Virus record (IMG/VR): IMGVR_UViG_3300027913_000117
Coordinates: 5,750-69,749 of that record
Length of the DNA: 64,000 nt
Direction: 5' to 3' (one strand)
DNA from: a virus
Lineage: Duplodnaviria; Caudoviricetes
Part shown: in pieces, positions 1 through 50,690 of the stretch
Layout of the letters: the number at the start of each line of letters is the position of its first letter
How positions within the stretch are numbered: position 1 is the stretch's first letter
The notes under the pieces: generated by a model
Told to the model about the DNA's origin: nothing
What the model saw: the letters and a program-made list of their open reading frames with translations, nothing else
Databases searched by the model: none
Translations under genes and position numbers: made by a program

Positions 1-379
1 CATCAATTTGGTTTATTCCTTTAACCTCTCCACTAAGTCCGAATCTTTCCATATTTGTTCCAACAAATATAGCAGGTCCACCTGATGGATCTACCATGTT
101 GAACTCACCCACTTTTGAAAATACCAAGTGGGCATATTTTTTTGTTATTGGTCCCGGTTGATATTTGTCGTCGTACTCATGAACTTTATTCATAAACTCA
201 CCAAGGGTTAATCTCTCGTCAGTATCCACGTCATTTGAATAGGCTTCATATGCTTTCGAATAGTCATTCGGATATCCAATTCTGACGTACTGAAATGCAC
301 CAGTCCATTTAATTCCATCTGGGGTTTCTTCGAACTCAAAGATATCCCCGTACCTGTTTTTATATGTTGTCTTTTTCAT
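1..379 (-). CDS. hypothetical phage protein, 3'-truncated by window edge (MKKTTYKNRYGDIFEF...NMVDPSGGPAIF...)
   Basis: Manually translated: ATG at 379-377, open frame to position 2 with no stop; absent from ORF track because it runs off the window. Confidence 0.8.
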   Translation of the reverse strand, partial: MKKTTYKNRYGDIFEFEETPDGIKWTGAFQYVRIGYPNDYSKAYEAYSNDVDTDERLTLGEFMNKVHEYDDKYQPGPITKKYAHLVFSKVGEFNMVDPSGGPAIFVGTNMERFGLSGEVKGINQID

Positions 380-458
380 ACTTTAATGTGTTAATTGGTC
401 TTTAATGACGCATAAATCCACCATTATATACCTTAAAGCACACTTTATTGTGATTTTG

Positions 459-644
459 CGAAGAAGATAGGACTCGAACCTACACGTCATTTGTGGTTTT
501 CTCTATTTACGAATGCAATCGTACCACCAGCGTTTTACTACTCCTAATGAAAATCCGCTTACCTCTTTTCATTAATATCAGCCTTGCGGGCCAATGTTAG
601 CGTCTACCACGTCAGGGAAATCCCTAACCTTCCGCCACCCCTTC
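459..644 (-). ncRNA. expanded tRNA-like element 1 (186 nt)
   Basis: Minus strand: acceptor GAAGGGG/CTTCTTC (7 bp incl. 2 G-U), T arm GTAGG-TTCGAGT-CCTAT, Leu-type D arm TGGCGGAA...TGGTAGACGC with inserted hairpin, 116-nt structured segment replacing anticodon/variable arms. Confidence 0.75.
600..639. repeat. 40-nt direct repeat copy 1 (D arm plus inserted hairpin of tRNA-like element)
   Basis: gcgtctaccacgtcagggaaatccctaaccttccgccacc; 39/40 identical to 863-902. Confidence 0.95.
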
Positions 645-761
645 ATGTACGGGTCTTTCCCCGTCTGTCACTCCTCGCACTTTGCGCATCAATTAGGAAT
701 TGCTTCCGAAAAGCTTCTCCGCTTATCTATTGTAGCTGCGACTGGAGTTCTCACTACCTCG

Positions 762-907
762 TGCTCAGGGATGGATTCGAACCATCATGGGATTTACTCT
801 TTTGGACACCCTACCACTAGCAAGGAGGTTTTACATTTCTATAAAGCCTCCGAGTGGCATTTGCGTCTACCATGTCAGGGAAATCCCTAACCTTCCGCCA
901 CCTGAGC
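762..907 (-). ncRNA. expanded tRNA-like element 2 (146 nt)
   Basis: Minus strand: perfect acceptor GCTCAGG/CCTGAGC plus discriminator A, perfect T arm GATGG-TTCGAAT-CCATC, same D-loop hairpin insert, 76-nt middle with nested stems TGCCACT/AGTGGTA, GGAGG/CCTCC, TTTA/TAAA. Confidence 0.75.
863..902. repeat. 40-nt direct repeat copy 2
   Basis: gcgtctaccatgtcagggaaatccctaaccttccgccacc. Confidence 0.95.
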
Positions 908-994
908 GTGTTGCCCGTCTTTCCGAGATGTCAACCACTTGTAAGATTCGTTATGTGCAGTACTATCTTACCAATCCTCTTATGGCCGATTTTG

Positions 995-1074
995 TAGTCA
1001 GGACAGGATTCGAACCTGTAAGCACGGGATTTGCCGTCCCGTGGCGTTAGCCGTAGTGTTTCCGCCACCTGACT
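995..1074 (-). tRNA. atypical tRNA / pseudo-tRNA, GCA (Cys-like) anticodon loop
   Basis: Acceptor AGTCAGG/CCTGACT, T arm ACAGG-TTCGAAT-CCTGT, D stem GCG/CGC with 16-nt loop, 6-bp anticodon stem ACGGGA/TCCCGT with loop CGGCAAA (G33 instead of U33); no encoded CCA. Confidence 0.6.
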
Positions 1075-1079
1075 ATGTT

Positions 1080-1364
1080 GCCTTTTTAAACGACGTTGAG
1101 AAGGCTAACTCTATCTCCTATACGATGAGAACGGGGCTAATCCCGTGTTTTACGATCCCCTCGCGAGCGGGGCTAATATTTTAGACATATTGTGCCATTT
1201 TGTGCTGAAATAGCCAACATGTTAGCTTTAAAGGAACCCAAGCAGTGTCGGTTAATTACTCCGTCTTACTTGGGTGTGTTGATGGTTATGGATTCCCACC
1301 AACTAGAATGACCATAGAGCATGTCGCGCTTGATGGTACATAGCCTACCGATGCTATCGATAGG
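1080..1364 (-). ncRNA. candidate structured ncRNA (about ten consecutive hairpins)
   Basis: No ORF; hairpins such as CCTATCGAT/ATCGGTAGG, GTTGGTGG/CCATCAAC, AGCTAAC/GTTGGCT, ACCCAAG/CTTGGGT, ACGGG/CCCGT; imperfect pairs are G-U on the minus strand. Confidence 0.45.
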
Positions 1365-1372
1365 GTTGATCT

Positions 1373-1597
1373 TTATGATAATTGTACTCCATTATCAAAT
1401 GCGATTTCGCGAATCTTATCTCTTACATCTTCCAAACCTTTTAGATATTGTGTAGGGACTTCGTCTGGTGCGTACTTTGTGTTAGTGCGTAACCAATTAT
1501 CTAGATCTTCTACAACATTTCTCCAATTGTGTCCGTTTATTGCATTTTCAAACGACTCTTGTTCTTCGGGTAAATGAAATTCTAATGTCGCTTTCAT
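1373..1597 (-). CDS. hypothetical protein (74 aa, MKATLEFHLPEEQESF...)
   Basis: ORF track 1373-1633 starts at TTG; ATG at 1597 preceded by an A/T-rich leader is the more likely start. Confidence 0.8.
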   Translation of the reverse strand: MKATLEFHLPEEQESFENAINGHNWRNVVEDLDNWLRTNTKYAPDEVPTQYLKGLEDVRDKIREIAFDNGVQLS

Positions 1598-1692
1598 GGT
1601 TTCAAAGTTAAGTCTTGTTCTGAAACCCCGCAAACTTCTTGTGTCATATTTGTGTCATAATTTTGTCGCAAATCTTATCAACTTTTGAGACA

Positions 1693-2310
1693 TCAATCAG
1701 TAATCAACTTTCTGGCTTTCTTGATGTGTTCAAACTCGGCATCGAAATACTTAAAGCCTGGAACCAAGTTCTTGCTGTCAAATGTAGCCAGGTCATTATA
1801 CATCAAAAACTCATGATCTATATTAAAACTAAAACCAATCAATAAGGAGAGCTCTATTGGACTATCTACCGCTTCAGACATCATATCCATCACTCGTTGT
1901 GTTCTACTCGTTGTAATGCGCTGAAAAGTGCATGATTTGATGAATTCGTCCATCTCTTCTTTTCGGATTTCGTGTTTGGCTAACAAATACTCAATGTTAT
2001 TCATTAAATTATGAGCAACTCTTACCGTAAACTTCTCTTTGGTTCTAGAGAAAATCTCACGCATAGCCATCTTTAAGTATTGCTTCTCTACTAACAAACC
2101 ACGGTTCTGTTTTAAAATGGTTGGAATAATCTCCGGAGTATCTAATCTTAAGATCTCCTTAATAGGCATCATTTTCAACCTTTCCTTTTTTTGAACTACT
2201 TTTTTCTCAACCGGTTTCTTTTTTATTGGTTTGACCGCTTTTGGTAGTTTTAAGGGTTTTGTTTCTAGTTCTTTATTCTCTTCTAGTAGTCTTTTTAGTA
2301 AATCTTCCAT
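1693..2310 (-). CDS. hypothetical protein, Lys-rich N-terminus (205 aa)
   Basis: Long ORF with ATG and phage-like composition. Confidence 0.8.
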   Translation of the reverse strand: MEDLLKRLLEENKELETKPLKLPKAVKPIKKKPVEKKVVQKKERLKMMPIKEILRLDTPEIIPTILKQNRGLLVEKQYLKMAMREIFSRTKEKFTVRVAHNLMNNIEYLLAKHEIRKEEMDEFIKSCTFQRITTSRTQRVMDMMSEAVDSPIELSLLIGFSFNIDHEFLMYNDLATFDSKNLVPGFKYFDAEFEHIKKARKLITD

Positions 2311-2380
2311 ATATTTAGTTTGAAGAGTGCATAGTTAACTCTTTATCTGTGAAATAGACTTTTCAAAACCGATTGAAACT

Positions 2381-2546
2381 TCTATCAACAGATCTGGGAC
2401 CAGTACCCGGCCAAATCAACAGTTCCCTCTGCGCCCCTTTCTTATGTATTCGTCTTAGTGTACAATCCGATCATATCACTAAAGACTGGGTGTCTTTGGG
2501 TCAGCAGCACAATTCCTCCGAAGAGTTTCACAGACCTGTTGATAGA
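2381..2546 (-). ncRNA. candidate rod-shaped ncRNA (6S-like architecture)
   Basis: 16-bp closing stem TCTATCAACAGGTCTG/CAGATCTGTTGATAGA (one G-U on minus strand), CTC-TTCG-GAG hairpin, inner stem, A-rich bubble, apical stem GTCTTTAGTG/CACTAAGAC. Confidence 0.45.
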
Positions 2547-2710
2547 GTCACATCAGAGCAGGATTTTTTTAACGTGCCACCGTTTGATTCAACATATAAC
2601 AAAGAGCTGAATTTTACCGTCCGTTTTTTATAAATCTCAAACACATGGCTTAAAATTTAGGTACAGACCTCACAACCATCAACTAGGAACCCTTGTTACA
2701 GGTTTTTTAG

Positions 2711-2781
2711 TTGCGCAGCCTGGAGTCGAACCAAGAGTACAGGATCATGAGTCCTGCGTGTTACCATTACACTACCGCGCA
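2711..2781 (-). tRNA. tRNA with CAT anticodon (elongator Met or Ile2)
   Basis: TGCGCGG-TA-GTGT-AATGGTA-ACAC-G-CAGGA-CTCATGA-TCCTG-TACT-CTTGG-TTCGACT-CCAGG-CTGCGCA-A; canonical cloverleaf, followed by CTA rather than CCA. Confidence 0.9.
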
Positions 2782-2882
2782 AAATGAGCCCACCTACCTA
2801 AAAGAACTTTAAGTTGCAGATAAAGAAGATTTTAGAAAAGAATAGATGGGCTAAATATCTTTCAACTTCTCTACCTGCGCTA

Positions 2883-2914
2883 CAAACATAATACAAAAAA
2901 ATCAAAAAAACAAA
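2883..2914 (-). promoter_or_regulatory. Bacteroidota housekeeping-sigma promoter driving the tRNA/ncRNA locus
   Basis: Minus strand TTTG(2914-2911)-N20-TATGTTTG(2890-2883). Confidence 0.75.
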
Positions 2915-2946
2915 TCCCGCAAATTCTTCTATCCTTTTTCTGTAAA

Positions 2947-2978
2947 TTTGGATATGTGTAACTAATTCACTATATTTG
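2947..2978 (+). promoter_or_regulatory. Bacteroidota promoter upstream of portal
   Basis: TTTG(2947-2950)-N20-TATATTTG(2971-2978). Confidence 0.8.
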
Positions 2979-2995
2979 CGAAATAAGACTTATAA

Positions 2996-5185
2996 ATGAG
3001 ACCGGATTTAAGAGAACAACCAGATCAGTTCGTCCCAGAGAATAAAAAAGACCAACTCTGGTATACTGAGAATGCTAGATATGTTGCCTCTAAGTATAAC
3101 ACACAGTTCAACAGTTTAGGATTCCGGAATGCGTCTGTCAACTACGACAAACCGATTGACGAAATGTTGCGTTTGTTCACTTACTATTTGGGCAAGCAAG
3201 AGAATCGCGACTACTACTATACCACTCAGGACCAGACCGGTTGTGAACTTCCTACTGTTTGGATCAACGGACAGAAACTTACGTCCATGATTGACTTCAT
3301 GTTGGGAACTGGAATCAAGATGATTGAGAACATCGAACCCAGCGTTAAGGCCATCTCCAGAACAGCAGTGAATAAAAAGACACTCGACATGGAACTGGCT
3401 CTTTTAAAAGTAGAGTTCGCGAATGTCTTCAAACAAATGGAAGAAGATTTCGGAGTTAGTGTTAACCCGATGGGAACCAAAGAGTTCGAACTTCCTGAAG
3501 AAGTCATGAAGTACATGCAGTACGACTATAAACAGTACGGTGAAGAAATAGCTTATGACATGATCATGGATATTTTACATCGTAACAAGTTCATGAACAA
3601 GTACAAGCAGGCTTTCTTCTACACGCTTTTGGCCGGGGTTGTCGGAATCGAAAACTTGATTATCAATAAAAAGCAAACCAAGAAAATCATTCTTCCTTAT
3701 AACTTGATTTGGGATAACACCTTTGATGATGATTTAAACGAAGGAGCAAGATTTGTTGGAAAAATCGACTGGATTACACCTGGGGAAATTGTTTCTAACC
3801 CATATTACACCAGACAGTTAACTGAAGCAGAAGTAAATGAGATCAAAAAGTTGACACCTGATAACATCGATAAGTTATTGGGAGAAGACAATATCACAAC
3901 CAATAAGTTGAAGTGGTACTGGAATAACAACGGTGTTCCATCCATTGCCGCAACTACTTGTTATTGGATTGGTTACAAAGAATTAAGATACGAGAAAACC
4001 AAGGATAAGTACGGTAACACCCATTTGGGTAAAATCAAAGGTGCTGCTACATCCCAGTATTGGGTGAAGACTGTTTACAAAGCTACATTGTTGGCTAATA
4101 AATACGTGGTAGACTTTGGAGAAGTAGAGAACATCGTTAGAAAATCAGACGACATCAACGACGTTCAACTTCCAATCACTGTTTTCATTCCTAACATGGT
4201 TATGGGAGAGTCTAGATCGATTGCATCTCGTCTTCACAAACACCAGGACCGTATCGATTTCTTAAACAACGAAATCACAAAAACAATTACCAGAGCTAAG
4301 GGTAAGGTTTTTGTATTGAATAAGAACAAGTTAGGAAGTGCTACATCTCAAGAAGTGTTAAACGACTTCGAAAGAATCGGTATCCATATTTCTGACGGTG
4401 GTGCTACTGGGGAAGACCCAATTGCAGCAGATAATAATCGTATTGTTGAGGTAGTTGATATGACATTGGACCCTAACGTACAACAGTTGCTTTCGTTGAA
4501 GCGCGAAGAAGAGCGAATCATGGAAGAGATTGTAAACGTACCAAAGGTGGCTATGGGACAACAACAAGGTTATGTTGGAGCCAAAACACAGGCCGGAAGT
4601 ATTGCTCAGTCTAACTTAGGTACTGCTTACTTGTATCAAGGCTTTATTCAGTTTATTGAAAGAGATCTTCAGTATGCCTTGAACCAGTTCAAAGTTTCTT
4701 TACTTGCAAACGAGGACGAAGACATACCGGTTGTTGGAGATCGCGGAATGAATTTCCTAAAAATCACCAAAGATTTCATGTTTGAGGATTTTGGTATTTA
4801 CGTTAAGGTAAAAGACTTCATTGATGAACAGGCTAAAGAGAGATTGTTGTTTATCGCGCAAGCCGCAATGCAGAACCAGGCTATTGATATGCTTGACTAC
4901 ATAGCGATTGAGACTTCTAAAACATATGCTGAACTTCAAAATCAATTACGTTACGCGATTGAGAAGAAGCAAAGAAAGATGGAAGAGCAACAGCAGATTC
5001 AAATGATGATGCAGCAAGCGCAAATGGAGCAACAACAACAATTACAACAAGATATGGTTGCGGCTAAAGAGCAAGGTAATAACTACCGGGCTGAACTTAA
5101 GGCAACTCAACAAGCACCTGCTGCGTCTAATGCTGTGGCTGAACAACCTGCTCCGGAAGGAGAGATGGTCGGAGGCCCCCAATAG
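2996..5185 (+). CDS. portal protein (crAss-like type)
   Basis: 729 aa, first gene of head module, Gln-rich coiled-coil C-terminus, portal-scaffold-MCP synteny. Confidence 0.8.
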   Translation: MRPDLREQPDQFVPENKKDQLWYTENARYVASKYNTQFNSLGFRNASVNYDKPIDEMLRLFTYYLGKQENRDYYYTTQDQTGCELPTVWINGQKLTSMIDFMLGTGIKMIENIEPSVKAISRTAVNKKTLDMELALLKVEFANVFKQMEEDFGVSVNPMGTKEFELPEEVMKYMQYDYKQYGEEIAYDMIMDILHRNKFMNKYKQAFFYTLLAGVVGIENLIINKKQTKKIILPYNLIWDNTFDDDLNEGARFVGKIDWITPGEIVSNPYYTRQLTEAEVNEIKKLTPDNIDKLLGEDNITTNKLKWYWNNNGVPSIAATTCYWIGYKELRYEKTKDKYGNTHLGKIKGAATSQYWVKTVYKATLLANKYVVDFGEVENIVRKSDDINDVQLPITVFIPNMVMGESRSIASRLHKHQDRIDFLNNEITKTITRAKGKVFVLNKNKLGSATSQEVLNDFERIGIHISDGGATGEDPIAADNNRIVEVVDMTLDPNVQQLLSLKREEERIMEEIVNVPKVAMGQQQGYVGAKTQAGSIAQSNLGTAYLYQGFIQFIERDLQYALNQFKVSLLANEDEDIPVVGDRGMNFLKITKDFMFEDFGIYVKVKDFIDEQAKERLLFIAQAAMQNQAIDMLDYIAIETSKTYAELQNQLRYAIEKKQRKMEEQQQIQMMMQQAQMEQQQQLQQDMVAAKEQGNNYRAELKATQQAPAASNAVAEQPAPEGEMVGGPQ

Positions 5186-6244: not shown

Positions 6245-7587
6245 TGGCTGGAAATGTAACAACCCTTGATATTAGCAAAAGCTTACTATTAAAGGGACTA
6301 TCGTTGCCTAACAAAATGGCGATGGTTTATGCTCAAGACTATGGGTATAACGTATTGACTCAATTGACTTCAAAACTTGGTCCGAGTATTTCTACTCCTC
6401 AAGCAAAAGTTGAAATCAGTTCTATTGGAAATCTTTCTGTGTACTCTGCTGTAACTGCGGTTGCTGCTGGTGGTACTGGAGAGCTTTTAGTTACTGTTGC
6501 AAACTCTGAGAACTTCCGTCCTGGTGATATCATCGCGGACTCTAACTTGGTTCAAGGTATTGTAATCGAAAAAACTGCTACTGCTAACCAATTACGTGTT
6601 AAGAGTGTAACTACCACTTTGAGTTCTTCTTTGCACTTCTTGGCTGGTCATATTGCAAAAGTAATGTTTGACGCATCTGCTAACCGTTTATCTTACGGTA
6701 AGCCTGCATTGAACATCGTGCCTAACACTGACTTCACTTACACTGCTGTAACTCGTGAAAGCTCAACTCAAGCACGTCGTGACCGTATTTCGTCTTTCGT
6801 AAAATGGCAAGGTGACTTCTGGTATCGCTCTTGGGACGATTTAACTTTACGTCGATTCGCTAAGTCTTTGGAATACAAGTATGCTTTCTCTGAGCGTGCT
6901 ATCTTCTCTGGACCTCATGGTGAGACTTACTCAACTGCTGGTTTACGTTGGTCTATCATCAACAACGGTGGTACTTACTTACCATTGACTTCTGAATTGA
7001 CTCAAACTGTGTTCAACGACTTCTTAGAATCTTTGGTTCGTAAGACAGCTGAAAACGGTCGTCGTTTGGTTGCAATGATGGGTTCTGCTGCTATGGCTCG
7101 TTTGCAAACAATCTTAGGTGACTACATCAAGTATGCTGGTACTCAGAATACTTTCGGTGGTGCATCTGTAGAAGGTTTGAACGTAATGACTTACAGCTAT
7201 GCTGGTATGACAATCGAATTCGTTCGTTGGGCTTTATTGGACGACGACATGTGGAAAGTTGAATTGTCAAGCATCACTGGTAAGCCAAAGCAGTCACACT
7301 CCATCTACTTCATGGATATGACTCCATTGCCTGCTGCTGACGGTAGCGGATCTTTGTCTCCATTGCAGAAGTACCACTTCAACAATGACGAGATGATTGC
7401 TAACTACGTACCAGGTATGGTAGGTTTGGAAGATTCTAGTCCTTCTAGCATCAAGCAAACAATCGCTGGCTCTCAATTGGTTTCTTTGGGAACTAATGAT
7501 ACCGACGGTGTTGACTTCCATATCTTGTCTGACTGTGGTCTTTACGTAGCTGCTGACCGTATGGGTCTGATTGAATTAGTACTCTAA
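6244..7587 (+). CDS. major capsid protein
   Basis: 447 aa, strongly biased high-expression codons (GCT, GGT, ACT, CGT), position after scaffold. Confidence 0.8.
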   Translation: MAGNVTTLDISKSLLLKGLSLPNKMAMVYAQDYGYNVLTQLTSKLGPSISTPQAKVEISSIGNLSVYSAVTAVAAGGTGELLVTVANSENFRPGDIIADSNLVQGIVIEKTATANQLRVKSVTTTLSSSLHFLAGHIAKVMFDASANRLSYGKPALNIVPNTDFTYTAVTRESSTQARRDRISSFVKWQGDFWYRSWDDLTLRRFAKSLEYKYAFSERAIFSGPHGETYSTAGLRWSIINNGGTYLPLTSELTQTVFNDFLESLVRKTAENGRRLVAMMGSAAMARLQTILGDYIKYAGTQNTFGGASVEGLNVMTYSYAGMTIEFVRWALLDDDMWKVELSSITGKPKQSHSIYFMDMTPLPAADGSGSLSPLQKYHFNNDEMIANYVPGMVGLEDSSPSSIKQTIAGSQLVSLGTNDTDGVDFHILSDCGLYVAADRMGLIELVL

Positions 7588-42545: not shown

Positions 42546-45353
42546 TTAAACTAAGCATGCACCACCAGCACAGGCTTGTTGATCGTTTAGATTTGTGTTG
42601 TCGTTTATCTCAACAATCTTAGTTACATCCAACTCGGTAACGTGTTTTAGTAGTTCCTCGTAGGTTTCTTTATCGATTGTTTCAAACGGGGTTTGTTTGT
42701 ATGAGCCAAGACTCTCAGGTAGGAACGAAAGTCCAGTGTATGAATCTCGATTGTTCCATAACCATTCACCTACTTCTTCCCATTCTGTTGGCTTTAATGT
42801 AACTGTTGCAGAAACATTGTGTGTATTTTTACCGTACACGTGACCAGGAGAGATCCAAGTTTCATGTAAGAACTTCACTCTTTCCAAAAAAGAAATGGCG
42901 GTCTCAGAACTCCTTGTAATCGCACCAACAGGAGCCTTGATAGGAACACTAACAACAGACTGAATACTAGGATACAATAAATCATCTTCTAGTAATTCAG
43001 GATGATAAATAGAAAGATAAGTATAGATTGCCTCATTCTTTCCAATACGCATTCTACGAACATAATACTCATCATGCCAAGCATGTACACCAGAAGAAGT
43101 TCCCAATACCATAGAAGATGTACCAGATGGCTTCACGGTGGTGATTCTTGCAGCAGGCATAATACCAAGTACCTCTGCTAAATCTTCATTTAGTTTCTTA
43201 GCTACTTTTGCTGCAGCTTGTAAGTCTAAATTCAAAACTTTGCCTGAAGCGATACCTGTCATACCAATACCCAACAACGCTTCTCTCTCAGTAGTTCTTT
43301 TCCATTCTGGTCTCAAGTAATGGAAGTCTGTATAAGAAGCCTGTATGGTTCCAATAAACGCTGCCGCCTTGATTCTTTCTTCTAAGTCTTTCTGGTCAAC
43401 AACATCAGAAGCATTTACTTCTACTAAATTACAGAACTGCATTGAGTTAAGTGATATTTCTCCACAGTTATGAGCAACAACACCCTCAACAACACCCCAG
43501 TGGGTATCGTCTTGTAAGTTAAAATCAAACACCTCTACTTCATCTCCATCTTTTATAGATTGAACAATGGGTGCTCTAGCTACTAACAACTCCTTTAAAG
43601 CAACCATTTTGTAGTTTTGCACAAAACCTATGTTTTCAAAGAACCATGCGATTTCGTTATATCTTCCGATATTGATGTCGTATGACTCTTTACAAGTATA
43701 GTTGCCATTAGAAAACTCAACTAGTTTTTCTTTATTTGTAGTGACGTAAGGATTTAACCCTAAGCCAATAAGAATAGATACTAACTGCTTTGCCAACTCT
43801 TTAGAGGTTGTTTTGTATGCGATTCTACTTGTTGTAATAACTGAACCGTTTGCCGAATACATACCTTTCAAGAAAGACTTTCTTTGTTCAATACTAAAGT
43901 CTGAGAAGTACTTTGGAAACTTTCTTGTTGGAAGAGGATTAGAGTCCATACCGAGCAAGGAAAGAATTTCATTGTATCCGTTAACATATTTTCTTCCGGT
44001 CTCAGAGTATCCAAATATTTCAGCAACATCTAAGTCGTTTTGCCCAAAATAAATCTCCATAGAGCGATGAGTTTCACTATCAAGCCTTCCAGTTGCACCA
44101 TCTCCTTGAATAAACCCATACTTGACGTACTCGTCTATTGTTTGGTTCGGTAGATAAAGAGGAGTTAGCCTCTTAGATTGTGTGTCTTTAGCTAAGCACT
44201 CTGATCCGTCTGGCAGCATAAACCGATGGTCTGGTGTGCACTTTATTTCTTTACCGTTAGATAATTTTAAAACCACCGTTTTCTTTACGCCATTAGACCA
44301 AACACTTCCTTCTACAACTTCTCCTTTTGCATTTATAAGAGATACTGGTCCCTCTAAAGATAATTCTCTAAAAGATTTGTATCCGCTTTCAGTCAACAGT
44401 CGCATGTCGCCTGTGAAACAAGGATTTGTGCCAAGTTCTAAATCGTTTGTGAAAAAGAATCCAGGTTCTCCACTGTTAGACAGCTCTACCTTCTTCCAAA
44501 GGTCTAAGAACTCTGACTTTTCAACACCGTCTCTTAACAATACAACACTATTGTTTGCGCGACCACGTTGTGGGTTTGTTTCGTACCATAAGCCAAACTT
44601 ACAGGTCAACATTTCTTCATCGTCTTTATCAAACAAGGCAATCATTGCTGATCTTCTGATACCCCCCGATAAAACAGCATCTGCAATATGACAAAGAATA
44701 TCATGACATTCTAATGACGTAAGTTTTTCTCCGTCTTTCTTTCTTTCAAAGATTGCTTCAATATGAGCCAAGCAGATACGCAATGGTTCTGGTCCTGGAG
44801 CAACACCTCCCGATGTAATTAAACGTTCACCTTTGGCTCTGATTGATCTAAAATCGAACAACGGTCTCCAAGAACTTAATCCCAAGTAAGACTTTACCAA
44901 CACCTTTACAGCATCAGCCCATCCTTCGATGTTGTCAGATACTAGATATTTCTTAGTTCTAATTGCTCTTTGAATAGTGGGTAACTTCTCGATGTGGTGT
45001 TTCTGAATAGAATATCCAACACCGGTTCCAGATAATAACAAGAACATTGTTTCGTTGAATGCTCTGTAGTCATCTATTGCTAAATAAGAACAGTTGTATT
45101 GACGAACTGGATTAACTTCGATAGGTAGTCCACCAAACTGTAGAGATCTCATCGAAGGAAGTACTTTTCTTTCAAATACAAATCGATACGTGTCCCTGAT
45201 TGCGCCCTCTAATTTAGGGAACTTTCGAATATGCATTTCCATATTTCGAGTTACTAACTCTTCCCAAGTTTCTCTTCTGTTTTTTTCTGGAAGAAATTTG
45301 GCGTACTTGGTCCACACCGTAATGTCTGAGAGTATTTTATGAGTCGATTCCAT
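42546..45353 (-). CDS. nrdJ: class II (adenosylcobalamin) ribonucleotide reductase, intein-containing
   Basis: VLPSMRSL, GTGVGYS, GGIRRSA, RANNS, GEPG, TNPC|GEI, FCNL, TTVKPSGT. Confidence 0.92.
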   Translation of the reverse strand: MESTHKILSDITVWTKYAKFLPEKNRRETWEELVTRNMEMHIRKFPKLEGAIRDTYRFVFERKVLPSMRSLQFGGLPIEVNPVRQYNCSYLAIDDYRAFNETMFLLLSGTGVGYSIQKHHIEKLPTIQRAIRTKKYLVSDNIEGWADAVKVLVKSYLGLSSWRPLFDFRSIRAKGERLITSGGVAPGPEPLRICLAHIEAIFERKKDGEKLTSLECHDILCHIADAVLSGGIRRSAMIALFDKDDEEMLTCKFGLWYETNPQRGRANNSVVLLRDGVEKSEFLDLWKKVELSNSGEPGFFFTNDLELGTNPCFTGDMRLLTESGYKSFRELSLEGPVSLINAKGEVVEGSVWSNGVKKTVVLKLSNGKEIKCTPDHRFMLPDGSECLAKDTQSKRLTPLYLPNQTIDEYVKYGFIQGDGATGRLDSETHRSMEIYFGQNDLDVAEIFGYSETGRKYVNGYNEILSLLGMDSNPLPTRKFPKYFSDFSIEQRKSFLKGMYSANGSVITTSRIAYKTTSKELAKQLVSILIGLGLNPYVTTNKEKLVEFSNGNYTCKESYDINIGRYNEIAWFFENIGFVQNYKMVALKELLVARAPIVQSIKDGDEVEVFDFNLQDDTHWGVVEGVVAHNCGEISLNSMQFCNLVEVNASDVVDQKDLEERIKAAAFIGTIQASYTDFHYLRPEWKRTTEREALLGIGMTGIASGKVLNLDLQAAAKVAKKLNEDLAEVLGIMPAARITTVKPSGTSSMVLGTSSGVHAWHDEYYVRRMRIGKNEAIYTYLSIYHPELLEDDLLYPSIQSVVSVPIKAPVGAITRSSETAISFLERVKFLHETWISPGHVYGKNTHNVSATVTLKPTEWEEVGEWLWNNRDSYTGLSFLPESLGSYKQTPFETIDKETYEELLKHVTELDVTKIVEINDNTNLNDQQACAGGACLV
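43467..44420 (-). mobile_element. intein (318 aa) with LAGLIDADG-type homing endonuclease
   Basis: Starts CFTGDMRLLT, ends VVAHN, +1 residue Cys; YGFIQGDG and FLKGMYSANG blocks. Confidence 0.92.
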
Positions 45354-50003: not shown

Positions 50004-50690
50004 TTATTTATATATGTCGTTGGTGATTATCTTTTTAATTGTGGTTTGATTGAACTGACCGCCTTTCTTTCCCTTGATTCCTTCAGAGTTAAGTGCGTTT
50101 GCGATTGCGAAGTATGACTTACCGGAAGATCTCATGTCAAATATACGCTTCACAATAACCATCTCCCCGGTGTCAGGAACAAGGTCGTCTCCTTGCTTGT
50201 TAAATCCTAGCGGTGTTGGTCCACAATAGACTTTCTTCTTATCCTTGAGATGACCCATTACAGATGTAATTAAGTCAGAACGTTGATTAGATTCAAACTC
50301 TGCAAAGGCCGCTACCATCTGCATCATCAACTTACCATGAGAGGTTGACGTATCTGCTTGAAAGTCTTGAGTATAGAAAGATACTCCGTTCTTCTCAAGG
50401 TATTCTATCCATTTAAGAGTGTCTTTTAAGTTACGACCGAAACGAGAAAGAGAGTAGACAACAACAACATCTATCTCTTTATTCTTCGCCAAATCCATCA
50501 TCTTCATGAAGTTTTGGCGGTTTTCAAACTTACGCCCTGAGATACCGGCATCACTCAAACGAGCCACGATATCGTACTCATTGTATTTACAAAACGCATC
50601 TAACTTTTCAGACTGGTTTTCAAGAGAGGATCCGTCCTCTACTTGGTTTGTATGTGATACTCTTGTGTATATTGCTGCTCTCTTTTTCAT
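50004..50690 (-). CDS. serine recombinase (resolvase catalytic domain plus short recombinase domain)
   Basis: AIYTRVS..Q...SLENQ, DAGISG, R.NF..M, VYSLSRFGRN, AAFAEFE, G..PLGF. Confidence 0.9.
   Translation of the reverse strand: MKKRAAIYTRVSHTNQVEDGSSLENQSEKLDAFCKYNEYDIVARLSDAGISGRKFENRQNFMKMMDLAKNKEIDVVVVYSLSRFGRNLKDTLKWIEYLEKNGVSFYTQDFQADTSTSHGKLMMQMVAAFAEFESNQRSDLITSVMGHLKDKKKVYCGPTPLGFNKQGDDLVPDTGEMVIVKRIFDMRSSGKSYFAIANALNSEGIKGKKGGQFNQTTIKKIITNDIYK

Follow-up and report, generated by a model that had tools for sequence, protein, structure and literature searches.

tRNA-Leu-framed elements with a conserved D-loop hairpin and large inserts: candidate non-decoding small RNAs of a crAss-like phage

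We analyzed a 64,000-nucleotide (nt) stretch of phage DNA (the window; bases 5750 to 69749 of the 69,749-bp IMG/VR virus record IMGVR_UViG_3300027913_000117). The minus strand of the window carries a block of RNA genes, comprising a tRNA-Met gene, two small unknown open reading frames (ORFs), and three elements framed like a leucine tRNA (elements C, A, and B). Elements A and B, which had been singled out in an earlier note on this DNA, are the main subject of the present analysis, and their parts are listed below.

762..907, minus strand: element A, a predicted tRNA-Leu-framed RNA of 146 nt; acceptor stem 901-907/763-769, discriminator A at 762
873..892, minus strand: D-loop hairpin insert of element A, GTTAGGG-ATTT-CCCTGAC, between A15 and U17-G18-G19
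787..862, minus strand: cargo A, 76 nt, replaces the anticodon and variable arms; has a 7-bp stem, TGCCACT/AGTGGTA
770..786, minus strand: T arm of element A, GATGG-TTCGAAT-CCATC
459..644, minus strand: element B, a predicted tRNA-Leu-framed RNA of 186 nt; acceptor stem 638-644/460-466, discriminator G at 459
610..629, minus strand: D-loop hairpin insert of element B, the same hairpin as in element A
484..599, minus strand: cargo B, 116 nt, a multi-helix module with closing helix CATT/AATG, a GCAA-capped hairpin, and a 9- to 10-bp hairpin
467..483, minus strand: T arm of element B, GTAGG-TTCGAGT-CCTAT

The earlier note had described two minus-strand, tRNA-shaped elements with intact acceptor stems and T arms, and rereading of the sequence confirmed this description. 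The acceptor stem of element A (GCTCAGG/CCTGAGC) has seven Watson-Crick pairs and is followed by A73, and that of element B (GAAGGGG/CTTCTTC) has five Watson-Crick and two G-U pairs and is followed by G73. The same D-loop hairpin was again read in both elements, as were a common 40-nt block (39/40 identical) and the segments of 76 nt (A) and 116 nt (B) that separate the D stem from the T stem. The leucine-type D arm common to the two elements consists of TGGCGGAA, a 20-nt insert (GGTTAGGGATTTCCCTGAC[A/G]), and TGGTAGACGC. The tRNA core is kept (i.e., 7-bp acceptor stem, 3-bp Leu-type D stem, U8, A14, A15:U48, G18G19, and TTCGA T loop), and the hairpin, of approximately 8 bp at positions 16/17, should stick out from the elbow of such a fold. 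Cargo A contains an inner hairpin (GGAGG/CCTCC with an 18-nt loop), and cargo B contains a further helix (GTGGT/ACCAC) that encloses an inner hairpin. Compared with shuffled sequences, the fold of the whole of element A had a z value of -4.09.

No anticodon arm (i.e., a 5-bp stem and a 7-nt loop with U33 and a readable anticodon) was found in element A or B. ARAGORN made no call for element A, B, or C, as the earlier note had expected for the first two; with the Rfam tRNA model (RF00005; curated cutoff, 29 bits), elements A (28.4 bits) and B (19.6 bits) both scored below the cutoff.

Elements of the same build were abundant in IMG/VR. The search pattern, in which the two D-arm flanks were fixed and any 14 to 30 nt were allowed between them, required neither the D-loop hairpin nor U48 and matched more than 118 stretches. 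Scripted inspection showed that 82 of the 121 listed matches have, no more than 500 nt away, a T arm followed immediately by the pairing 7-bp strand of the acceptor stem; the estimated number of chance finds of this acceptor and T-arm build was about 0.4. Among the matches listed there were 67 distinct elements, and 62 (100 to 300 nt) were retained after five real or lookalike ordinary tRNAs with long D loops, including three clear tRNA-Leu(TAA) genes, were dropped. Sixty of these 62 elements were aligned (alignment A1), and the pairs changed on both sides were counted as follows.

Acceptor stem, alignment A1: 7/7 pairs changed on both sides
T stem, alignment A1: 4/5 pairs changed on both sides
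D-loop hairpin, alignment A1: 6/7 pairs changed on both sides

Across A1, 96.9% of the cells were paired, compared with 34 to 44% when the partners were slid by one to three columns, and none of 500 shuffles reached the observed score. The D-loop hairpin was 91% paired. At one of its positions U-G was the commonest pair (36/60 sequences), which fits selection on the RNA strand of the elements and not on a DNA palindrome. U48, the partner of A15, was invariant (62/62), and the discriminator was A73 in 49 of the 62 elements. The base after the discriminator was C in all but two elements (60/62), and the CCA end was not encoded; most ordinary tRNAs called by ARAGORN at the same loci also end in C. 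The earlier note had proposed that phage RNAs with such a tRNA frame form a class, with structure under selection. Both proposals are borne out, the first by 62 distinct elements of one build and the second by compensatory changes in the acceptor stem, the T stem, the D-loop insert, and at least one cargo (see below).

A covariance model of the elbow and D-loop insert, as the earlier note had suggested, led to further members in phage loci. This model (R1) was built from A1 and is not a curated family. Elements A (88.5 bits) and B (77.6 bits) match R1 by construction because both are in the seed alignment. Outside the seed, R1 matched element C, RNA1 of phage T5, and loci L017, L036, L041, and L020, which belong to relatives of the phage. 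It also revealed arrays in other phage contigs, many of which are very large. Each array has five to eight elements, with one common acceptor, different cargos, and mostly a normal Leu D loop. In the four arrays that were read through (L099, L162, L125, and L169), only one member had the D-loop hairpin.

When the pattern was applied to a genome collection, one true element was found among the 120 matches listed, in a Sphingobacterium metagenome-assembled genome (MAG; L241). The remaining listed matches comprised eight palindrome-interrupted bacterial tRNA-Leu copies, one chance fit of the acceptor and T-arm filter, and others without a downstream acceptor and T arm. Expanded elements were rare in the bacterial family of this MAG, with 2 of the 101 genomes searched containing one. 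Within the reach of these searches, the RNA family is phage borne.

An assembly from that same bacterial family also holds a 194-nt chassis RNA (L303; G075:C132:2689-2882, minus strand) with acceptor GGCAAGG/CCTTGCC, a normal Leu D loop, and a cargo of approximately 125 nt; it may belong to a prophage or a co-binned phage contig. The eight palindrome-interrupted copies (L183, L215, L219, L238, L251, L276, L277, and L286; bacterial, mostly from Bacteroidota and Ignavibacteria) are extra tRNA-Leu genes with the 20-nt palindrome CCTGCCTGCCGGCAGGCAGG in the D loop, and the palindrome sometimes occurs in their anticodon region as well. After each palindrome copy come an ORF of approximately 80 amino acids (aa) of the GIY-YIG type (e.g., L251:3172-3411; Pfam E = 5e-18) and then an intact tRNA-Leu. 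The palindrome and GIY-YIG unit looks, from this arrangement, like a homing-type element targeting tRNA-Leu.

Judged by its sequence, the frame of the elements (hereinafter, the chassis) is leucine-tRNA-like. A phage tRNA-Leu(TAA) gene in locus L055 has the same D arm save one D-loop base, and tRNA-Leu genes of the family of the Sphingobacterium MAG (Sphingobacteriaceae) scored 48 to 51 bits with R1. One of these bacterial genes has the acceptor GCTCAGG/CCTGAGT followed by A73, compared with GCTCAGG/CCTGAGC in element A. Leucyl-tRNA synthetase (LeuRS) of Escherichia coli is reportedly independent of the anticodon and the variable arm, with A73 and the D/T-loop tertiary core being what matters; this is said to come from the work of Larkin et al. 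2002 and Asahara et al. Leucylation of element A is possible because it has a host-type acceptor and A73, and leucylation of element B is doubtful because of G73. In relatives represented by metagenome contigs, single-base variants turn both G-U acceptor pairs of element B into G-C or A-U and G73 into A. These contigs came from four sequencing runs whose DNA was compared with the region for variants and joints, with sparse coverage of cargo A.

The cargo differs between elements, yet it falls into conserved classes. Cargo B has homologues at L093:1609-1799(+) (82% identical) and at L008:829-989(-) (73% identical; lineage L008-L010), and a motif scan for it returned only these already known lineages. 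RNAalifold predicted four helices for the three cargo B lineages, with 13 of the 39 predicted pairs changed on both sides, and unpaired stretches (AGGAGTAG..AAACGC and ATAGAGAAA) were conserved. The folds that the earlier note had drawn for the two cargos thus fared differently: the cargo B helices covary in homologues, and those of cargo A rest on thermodynamics. By eye, L055 and L148 carry versions of one cargo, with differences in the stems and GNRA loops changed from GAAA to GTGA, and the cargo pairs L137/L070 and L080/L092 behave likewise. No universal motif was found in k-mers across all cargos, and Rfam searches at permissive thresholds of the window (E up to 10) and of 20 other loci identified no known family in any cargo.

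Chassis and cargo come apart in these comparisons. Similarity between the DNA of L093 and this genome is confined to an island of leader and element (203 nt; 80% identity). In L008, cargo B sits on a chassis with acceptor AACCAAG/CTTGGTT, a small D arm, and no D-loop hairpin. Therefore, the chassis, the D-loop hairpin, and the cargo are separable modules, and the hairpin that the earlier note had read in both scaffolds covaries in the family and is optional. Contigs of relatives of the phage have joints within the chassis sequence, with whole elements gained or lost; in one contig, the 5' half of element C is fused to the 3' side of the D arm of element A, without the hairpin. Some elements hold larger D-loop inserts (e.g., a 47-nt insert with an internal T-arm-like hairpin in L020:464-644), and the D loop can thus be regarded as a second cargo site. 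Elements A and B make up a subclass with a conserved D-loop hairpin, and the use of this hairpin as a second insertion site is new. Some inserts (L094, L112, L074, and L020:464-644) contain a second internal T-arm-like hairpin (e.g., GGGTTCGAGTCCC), as if the 3' half of a tRNA were nested within the chassis RNA.

Elements A and B are each preceded by a leader with a conserved hairpin.

908..934, minus strand: leader of element A; TTGACA, hairpin with loop GAAAGA, ends 6 nt before the 5' end of the element
645..671, minus strand: leader of element B; GTGACA, hairpin ACGGG-GAAAGA-CCCGT, ends 4 nt before the 5' end of the element

The hairpin of the element B leader is identical in L093. The leader motif consists of TGAC(A), a covarying stem, and the invariant loop GAAAGA closed by G-C, and it ends 3 to 9 nt before the 5' ends. 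It occurs at 2 sites in this genome, only at elements A and B, and at 30 more sites in other phage loci. A crude motif flag placed 19 of these 32 sites directly before a tRNA-like gene; by eye, several unflagged sites precede ordinary phage tRNA genes (e.g., L086 and L119). These positions suggest that the leader may be a tRNA-gene leader signal, either a processing signal or a phage-specific promoter. A role as a general phage promoter was rejected, given that the genome has only two sites and both are at elements. A scan of window positions 1 to 3100 for sigma-70 promoters and terminators found sites no more numerous than in shuffled sequences. A second leader type of approximately 60 nt (TTCTCATCGTATAGGAGATAG..GTTAGCCTTC.CAACGTCGTT.AAAAAGGCAA) lies upstream of element C (window 1075-1140, minus strand) and also occurs in the unrelated contig L166, upstream of position 7017, before an element with a D-loop hairpin.

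The other members of the block are a short element that was absent from the earlier note and the only canonical tRNA gene of the window.

995..1074, minus strand: element C, a short member of 80 nt; acceptor AGTCAGG/CCTGACT, A73
2711..2781, minus strand: ordinary tRNA-Met(CAT), with no other canonical tRNA in the window; shares its strand and gene block with elements A, B, and C

The acceptor of element C is the commonest of the family. Element C has a 16-nt D loop without a hairpin and a stem-loop with the loop CGGCAAA, in which G stands at position 33 instead of U33. It passes the Rfam tRNA cutoff (38.3 bits) and scores 45.1 bits with R1. The loop CGGCAAA recurs in L032:1507-1578 (a tRNA-Cys according to ARAGORN), where it caps a different stem.

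Several genes mark the phage as crAss-like. A portal gene and a capsid-like gene were present among the window genes, and the phage genes also include those for a terminase, a DNA polymerase, a primase-helicase, and a 1,402-aa protein with a Crassvirus muzzle domain; a 3,262-aa ORF equals the crAss virion RNA polymerase in size and had no Pfam match. Because the phage genes are crAss-like, the host is probably a Bacteroidota bacterium. Phage DNA was detected in metagenomes from wastewater, lake water, and drinking water, and the sequencing runs listed for the phage included no RNA run. No RNA ligase, CCA-adding enzyme, or synthetase was identified among the scanned window genes, and the phage genes that were scanned yielded no RNA-processing enzyme. 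An intein that contains a LAGLIDADG homing-endonuclease domain splits the ribonucleotide reductase gene (window 42546-45353, minus strand; Pfam hits), with an Intein_splicing score of 27.5, below its 35.8-bit cutoff. A serine recombinase with Resolvase and Recombinase domains is encoded at window 50004-50690 (minus strand); crAss-like phages are usually regarded as unable to integrate. The top cluster of neighboring proteins, a small protein with the motif KYGTxMDRxDL (no Pfam hit), was considered as a partner of the elements and rejected; it lies less than 5 kb away in 10 of 66 loci, at varying distances and often nonadjacent. BLAST searches (near-identity and distant) of the region and of one family member against 50,697 GenBank phage records gave no match, and a full-text literature search found no description of an RNA family on a tRNA-Leu chassis.

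The best explanation, which we hold with moderate confidence, is that elements A, B, and C are genes for non-decoding small RNAs on a leucine-tRNA chassis that mature like tRNAs and act through their inserts. Their transcription would proceed on the minus strand, along with that of tRNA-Met and the small early-type genes. RNase P would cut the 5' end just past the conserved leader hairpin, and the 3' end would be trimmed after the discriminator and then receive CCA, as on the real tRNAs of the phage. The predicted products would be stable L-shaped RNAs of approximately 150 and 190 nt that are unable to read codons. In them, the chassis would serve processing, stability, and perhaps leucylation, the cargo heads would bind host or phage factors in takeover or counter-defense, and the near-identical chassis ends would act as junctions for the exchange of inserts between phages. 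The kept core bases, the C after the discriminator, and the annotation of T5 RNA1 as stable are consistent with tRNA-type processing of the predicted transcripts.

Five alternatives were weighed. The chassis itself could be the working part, as a decoy or sponge for LeuRS or for toxins that cut, acetylate, or pyrophosphorylate tRNAs, and the inserts would then mainly keep the RNAs off the ribosome. Such a role would suit a strongly conserved chassis (AGTCAGG...CCTGACT-A in 35/62 elements, with U48 and the D arm kept), an acceptor equal to that of a host-type tRNA-Leu, several copies per genome, and the many array members with just small, odd loops at the anticodon-loop site. However, part of the chassis conservation was built in because the search pattern fixed the D-arm flanks. 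A spacer would not need conserved cargo classes, compensatory changes, or conserved unpaired motifs, and dozens of cargos on one chassis are hard to explain in this way; we consider a decoy or sponge unlikely. The elements might instead act at the level of DNA or the transcript, as recombination junctions, mobile cassettes, or RNase P/Z punctuation, with a released RNA that has no function. Joints between relatives do fall in the chassis sequence, leader and element form an island of similarity between otherwise unrelated phages, and the same leader hairpin precedes ordinary tRNAs, but units of this kind could do without a D-loop hairpin that covaries and contains G-U pairs, and without a structured, conserved cargo, and this explanation appears decidedly improbable.

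The earlier note had argued against random decay and had named known introns that yield ordinary tRNAs as a refuting outcome; the present results speak against both. If the elements were tRNA-Leu genes with two introns, in the D loop and the anticodon region, splicing would yield normal tRNAs; without the 20-nt insert, the Leu D loop is indeed normal, and many of the elements are "called" by ARAGORN when introns are allowed. Those calls are due to the chassis alone, because shuffled cargo was called equally often: after in silico removal of the D insert, 54/62 real elements were called, versus 45 to 55/62 with shuffled cargo. Moreover, the ARAGORN isotypes disagree between homologues, and no group I, group II, or other intron match was found in Rfam (the window at E up to 10; 20 other loci). 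The flanks of the D-loop hairpin cannot form a 4-bp central helix, and no bulge-helix-bulge could be drawn by eye. No excision yields a 5-bp stem with a seven-base loop containing U33 in element A or B, and cargo B is also found where the D arm of the chassis is quite different. Spliced tRNAs are thus a very improbable reading. Very little also speaks for decaying tRNA pseudogenes or insertion scars in tRNA-Leu genes, which the palindrome-riddled bacterial tRNA-Leu copies beside GIY-YIG genes bring to mind: in Bacteroidota and Ignavibacteria assemblies, a perfect 20-nt palindrome interrupts extra tRNA-Leu copies at exactly the same D-loop site. The phage hairpins, by contrast, are imperfect at the DNA level (G-U pairs) and covary, the stems are paired in all 62 elements, the cargo is conserved across lineages, and the invariant tertiary-contact bases are kept; because of this pairing, covariation, and core conservation, the elements are not decayed tRNAs. 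Least probable of all are miniature tmRNA (transfer-messenger RNA)-like RNAs that would bring a tag reading frame into stalled ribosomes. The outline is alike (i.e., an acceptor and T arm around a large insert), and in phi14:2, which is also crAss-like, an intergenic stretch with high transcription includes a tmRNA-like region. Nevertheless, elements A and B lack G3:U70, with U-A (element A) and A-U (element B) at 3:70; ARAGORN called neither of them a tmRNA, and tmRNA was not among the listed Rfam matches; the sole open frame of cargo B (GCT...TGA) is not kept in L093 or L008, and 146 to 186 nt is too short for the pseudoknots.

The region of phi14:2 is itself unannotated. In Cellulophaga phage phi14:2 (L299; NC_021806), positions 4031-4502 (plus strand) match the Rfam tmRNA model with 46 bits, against a cutoff of 47 (E = 7e-16). 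The phi14:2 paper (bioRxiv 10.1101/2020.03.07.982082) describes the gene-free stretch that contains this region as a "long non-coding RNA" with very high transcription and no known function.

Several observations weigh against non-decoding RNAs with working inserts. The whole of element B folded no better than its shuffled versions (z = -1.31), and its G73 would not fit an E. coli-type leucine identity. Cargo A had no homologue in any locus fetched, and its fold is a thermodynamic prediction. RNase P or LeuRS might have trouble recognizing an elbow that carries the D-loop hairpin at positions 16/17. The close resemblance of chassis and cargo in unrelated phages could be due to recent transfer and not only to selection. 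Finally, because no conserved partner protein was found near the elements and because the unpaired loops of cargos A and B gave self matches only when compared with the phage's own genome for complementarity, there is no pointer to a binding partner of the cargo.

A bolder version of the explanation with working inserts, which we offer tentatively and think rather unlikely, is a modular RNA display system common to phages of several lineages. It would combine a Leu-tRNA chassis with two plug-in sites, maturation by host enzymes, perhaps leucylation, exchangeable aptamer-like heads that neutralize targets in defense or takeover, and recombination junctions at the chassis ends. If true, nature would have its own version of the engineered tRNA scaffold, and the system would parallel anti-defense protein arsenals at the RNA level. 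Independently of this, many RNA genes are likely to lie unannotated in "intergenic" regions of phages, because tRNA finders miss all 62 elements.

Among known systems, the YrlA-type Y RNAs of bacteria and phages are non-coding and include a tRNA-like module that has a T arm, and some are phage encoded (Chen et al. 2014, PMC4201824). The ends of YrlA form the Ro-binding stem and its tRNA-like part is internal, whereas the ends of elements A and B form the acceptor stem, so the YrlA topology is inverted relative to theirs; no Y RNA match was found in the Rfam scans of the window and 20 other loci. The ends of tmRNA (SsrA), like those of elements A and B, form a tRNA-like domain around a large insert, and tRNA enzymes mature it; however, its alanine identity (G3:U70), reduced stemless D arm, pseudoknots, and tag frame have no equivalent in the two elements. 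In the engineered "tRNA scaffold" of Ponchon and Dardel 2007, the anticodon arm is reportedly replaced by an RNA of interest, and the tRNA body is said to provide processing and nuclease resistance. The design principle is the same, but the scaffold is man-made, while the elements use a natural class II Leu frame with a second site in the D loop. This second insertion site could inform the engineering of RNA scaffolds.

The closest precedents come from phages T5 and T4, and on this point the implied novelty of the class in the earlier note does not hold, as T5 RNA1/RNA2 and T4 species 1 RNA are old examples of the same kind. The T5 record (AY543070) annotates RNA1 (144 nt) and RNA2 (125 nt), inside the tRNA cluster, as "tRNA-like stable RNA with unknown functions." With R1, T5 RNA1 (36.7 bits) scored higher than T5 tRNA-Leu (31.0), and T5 RNA2 was weak (18.1 bits). 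T5 RNA1 resembles elements A and B in its Leu-type D arm (CCGGAAUUGGUAGACGG), T arm, acceptor stem, and an insert of approximately 75 nt that replaces the anticodon and variable arms; it differs in having no D-loop hairpin and another acceptor and cargo, and its phage infects E. coli, whereas the phage of elements A and B is crAss-like. The species 1 and 2 RNAs of T4 (rnaC, 139 nt; rnaD, 119 nt) are small stable RNAs that end the T4 tRNA cluster and have no sequence in common with element A or B. T4 rnaC has a canonical T arm at its end (CCGGG-TTCGAAT-CCCGG), and its 3' 92 nt match R1 weakly (21.7 bits); unlike elements A and B, it shows neither a Leu-type D arm nor a 7-bp acceptor stem clearly. 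Given the T5 RNA1/RNA2 and T4 rnaC precedents, the kind is old and has been seen experimentally. The tRNA-like stable RNAs in the T4 and T5 tRNA clusters have been unexplained for decades and treated as curiosities, and the layout of T5 RNA1 now appears as a small visible part of a large family that uncultured phages carry, which has a strict tRNA core and free exchange of inserts. The old question is thereby testable, with T5 RNA1 as a tractable model and the metagenomic family as a source of many natural cargo variants.

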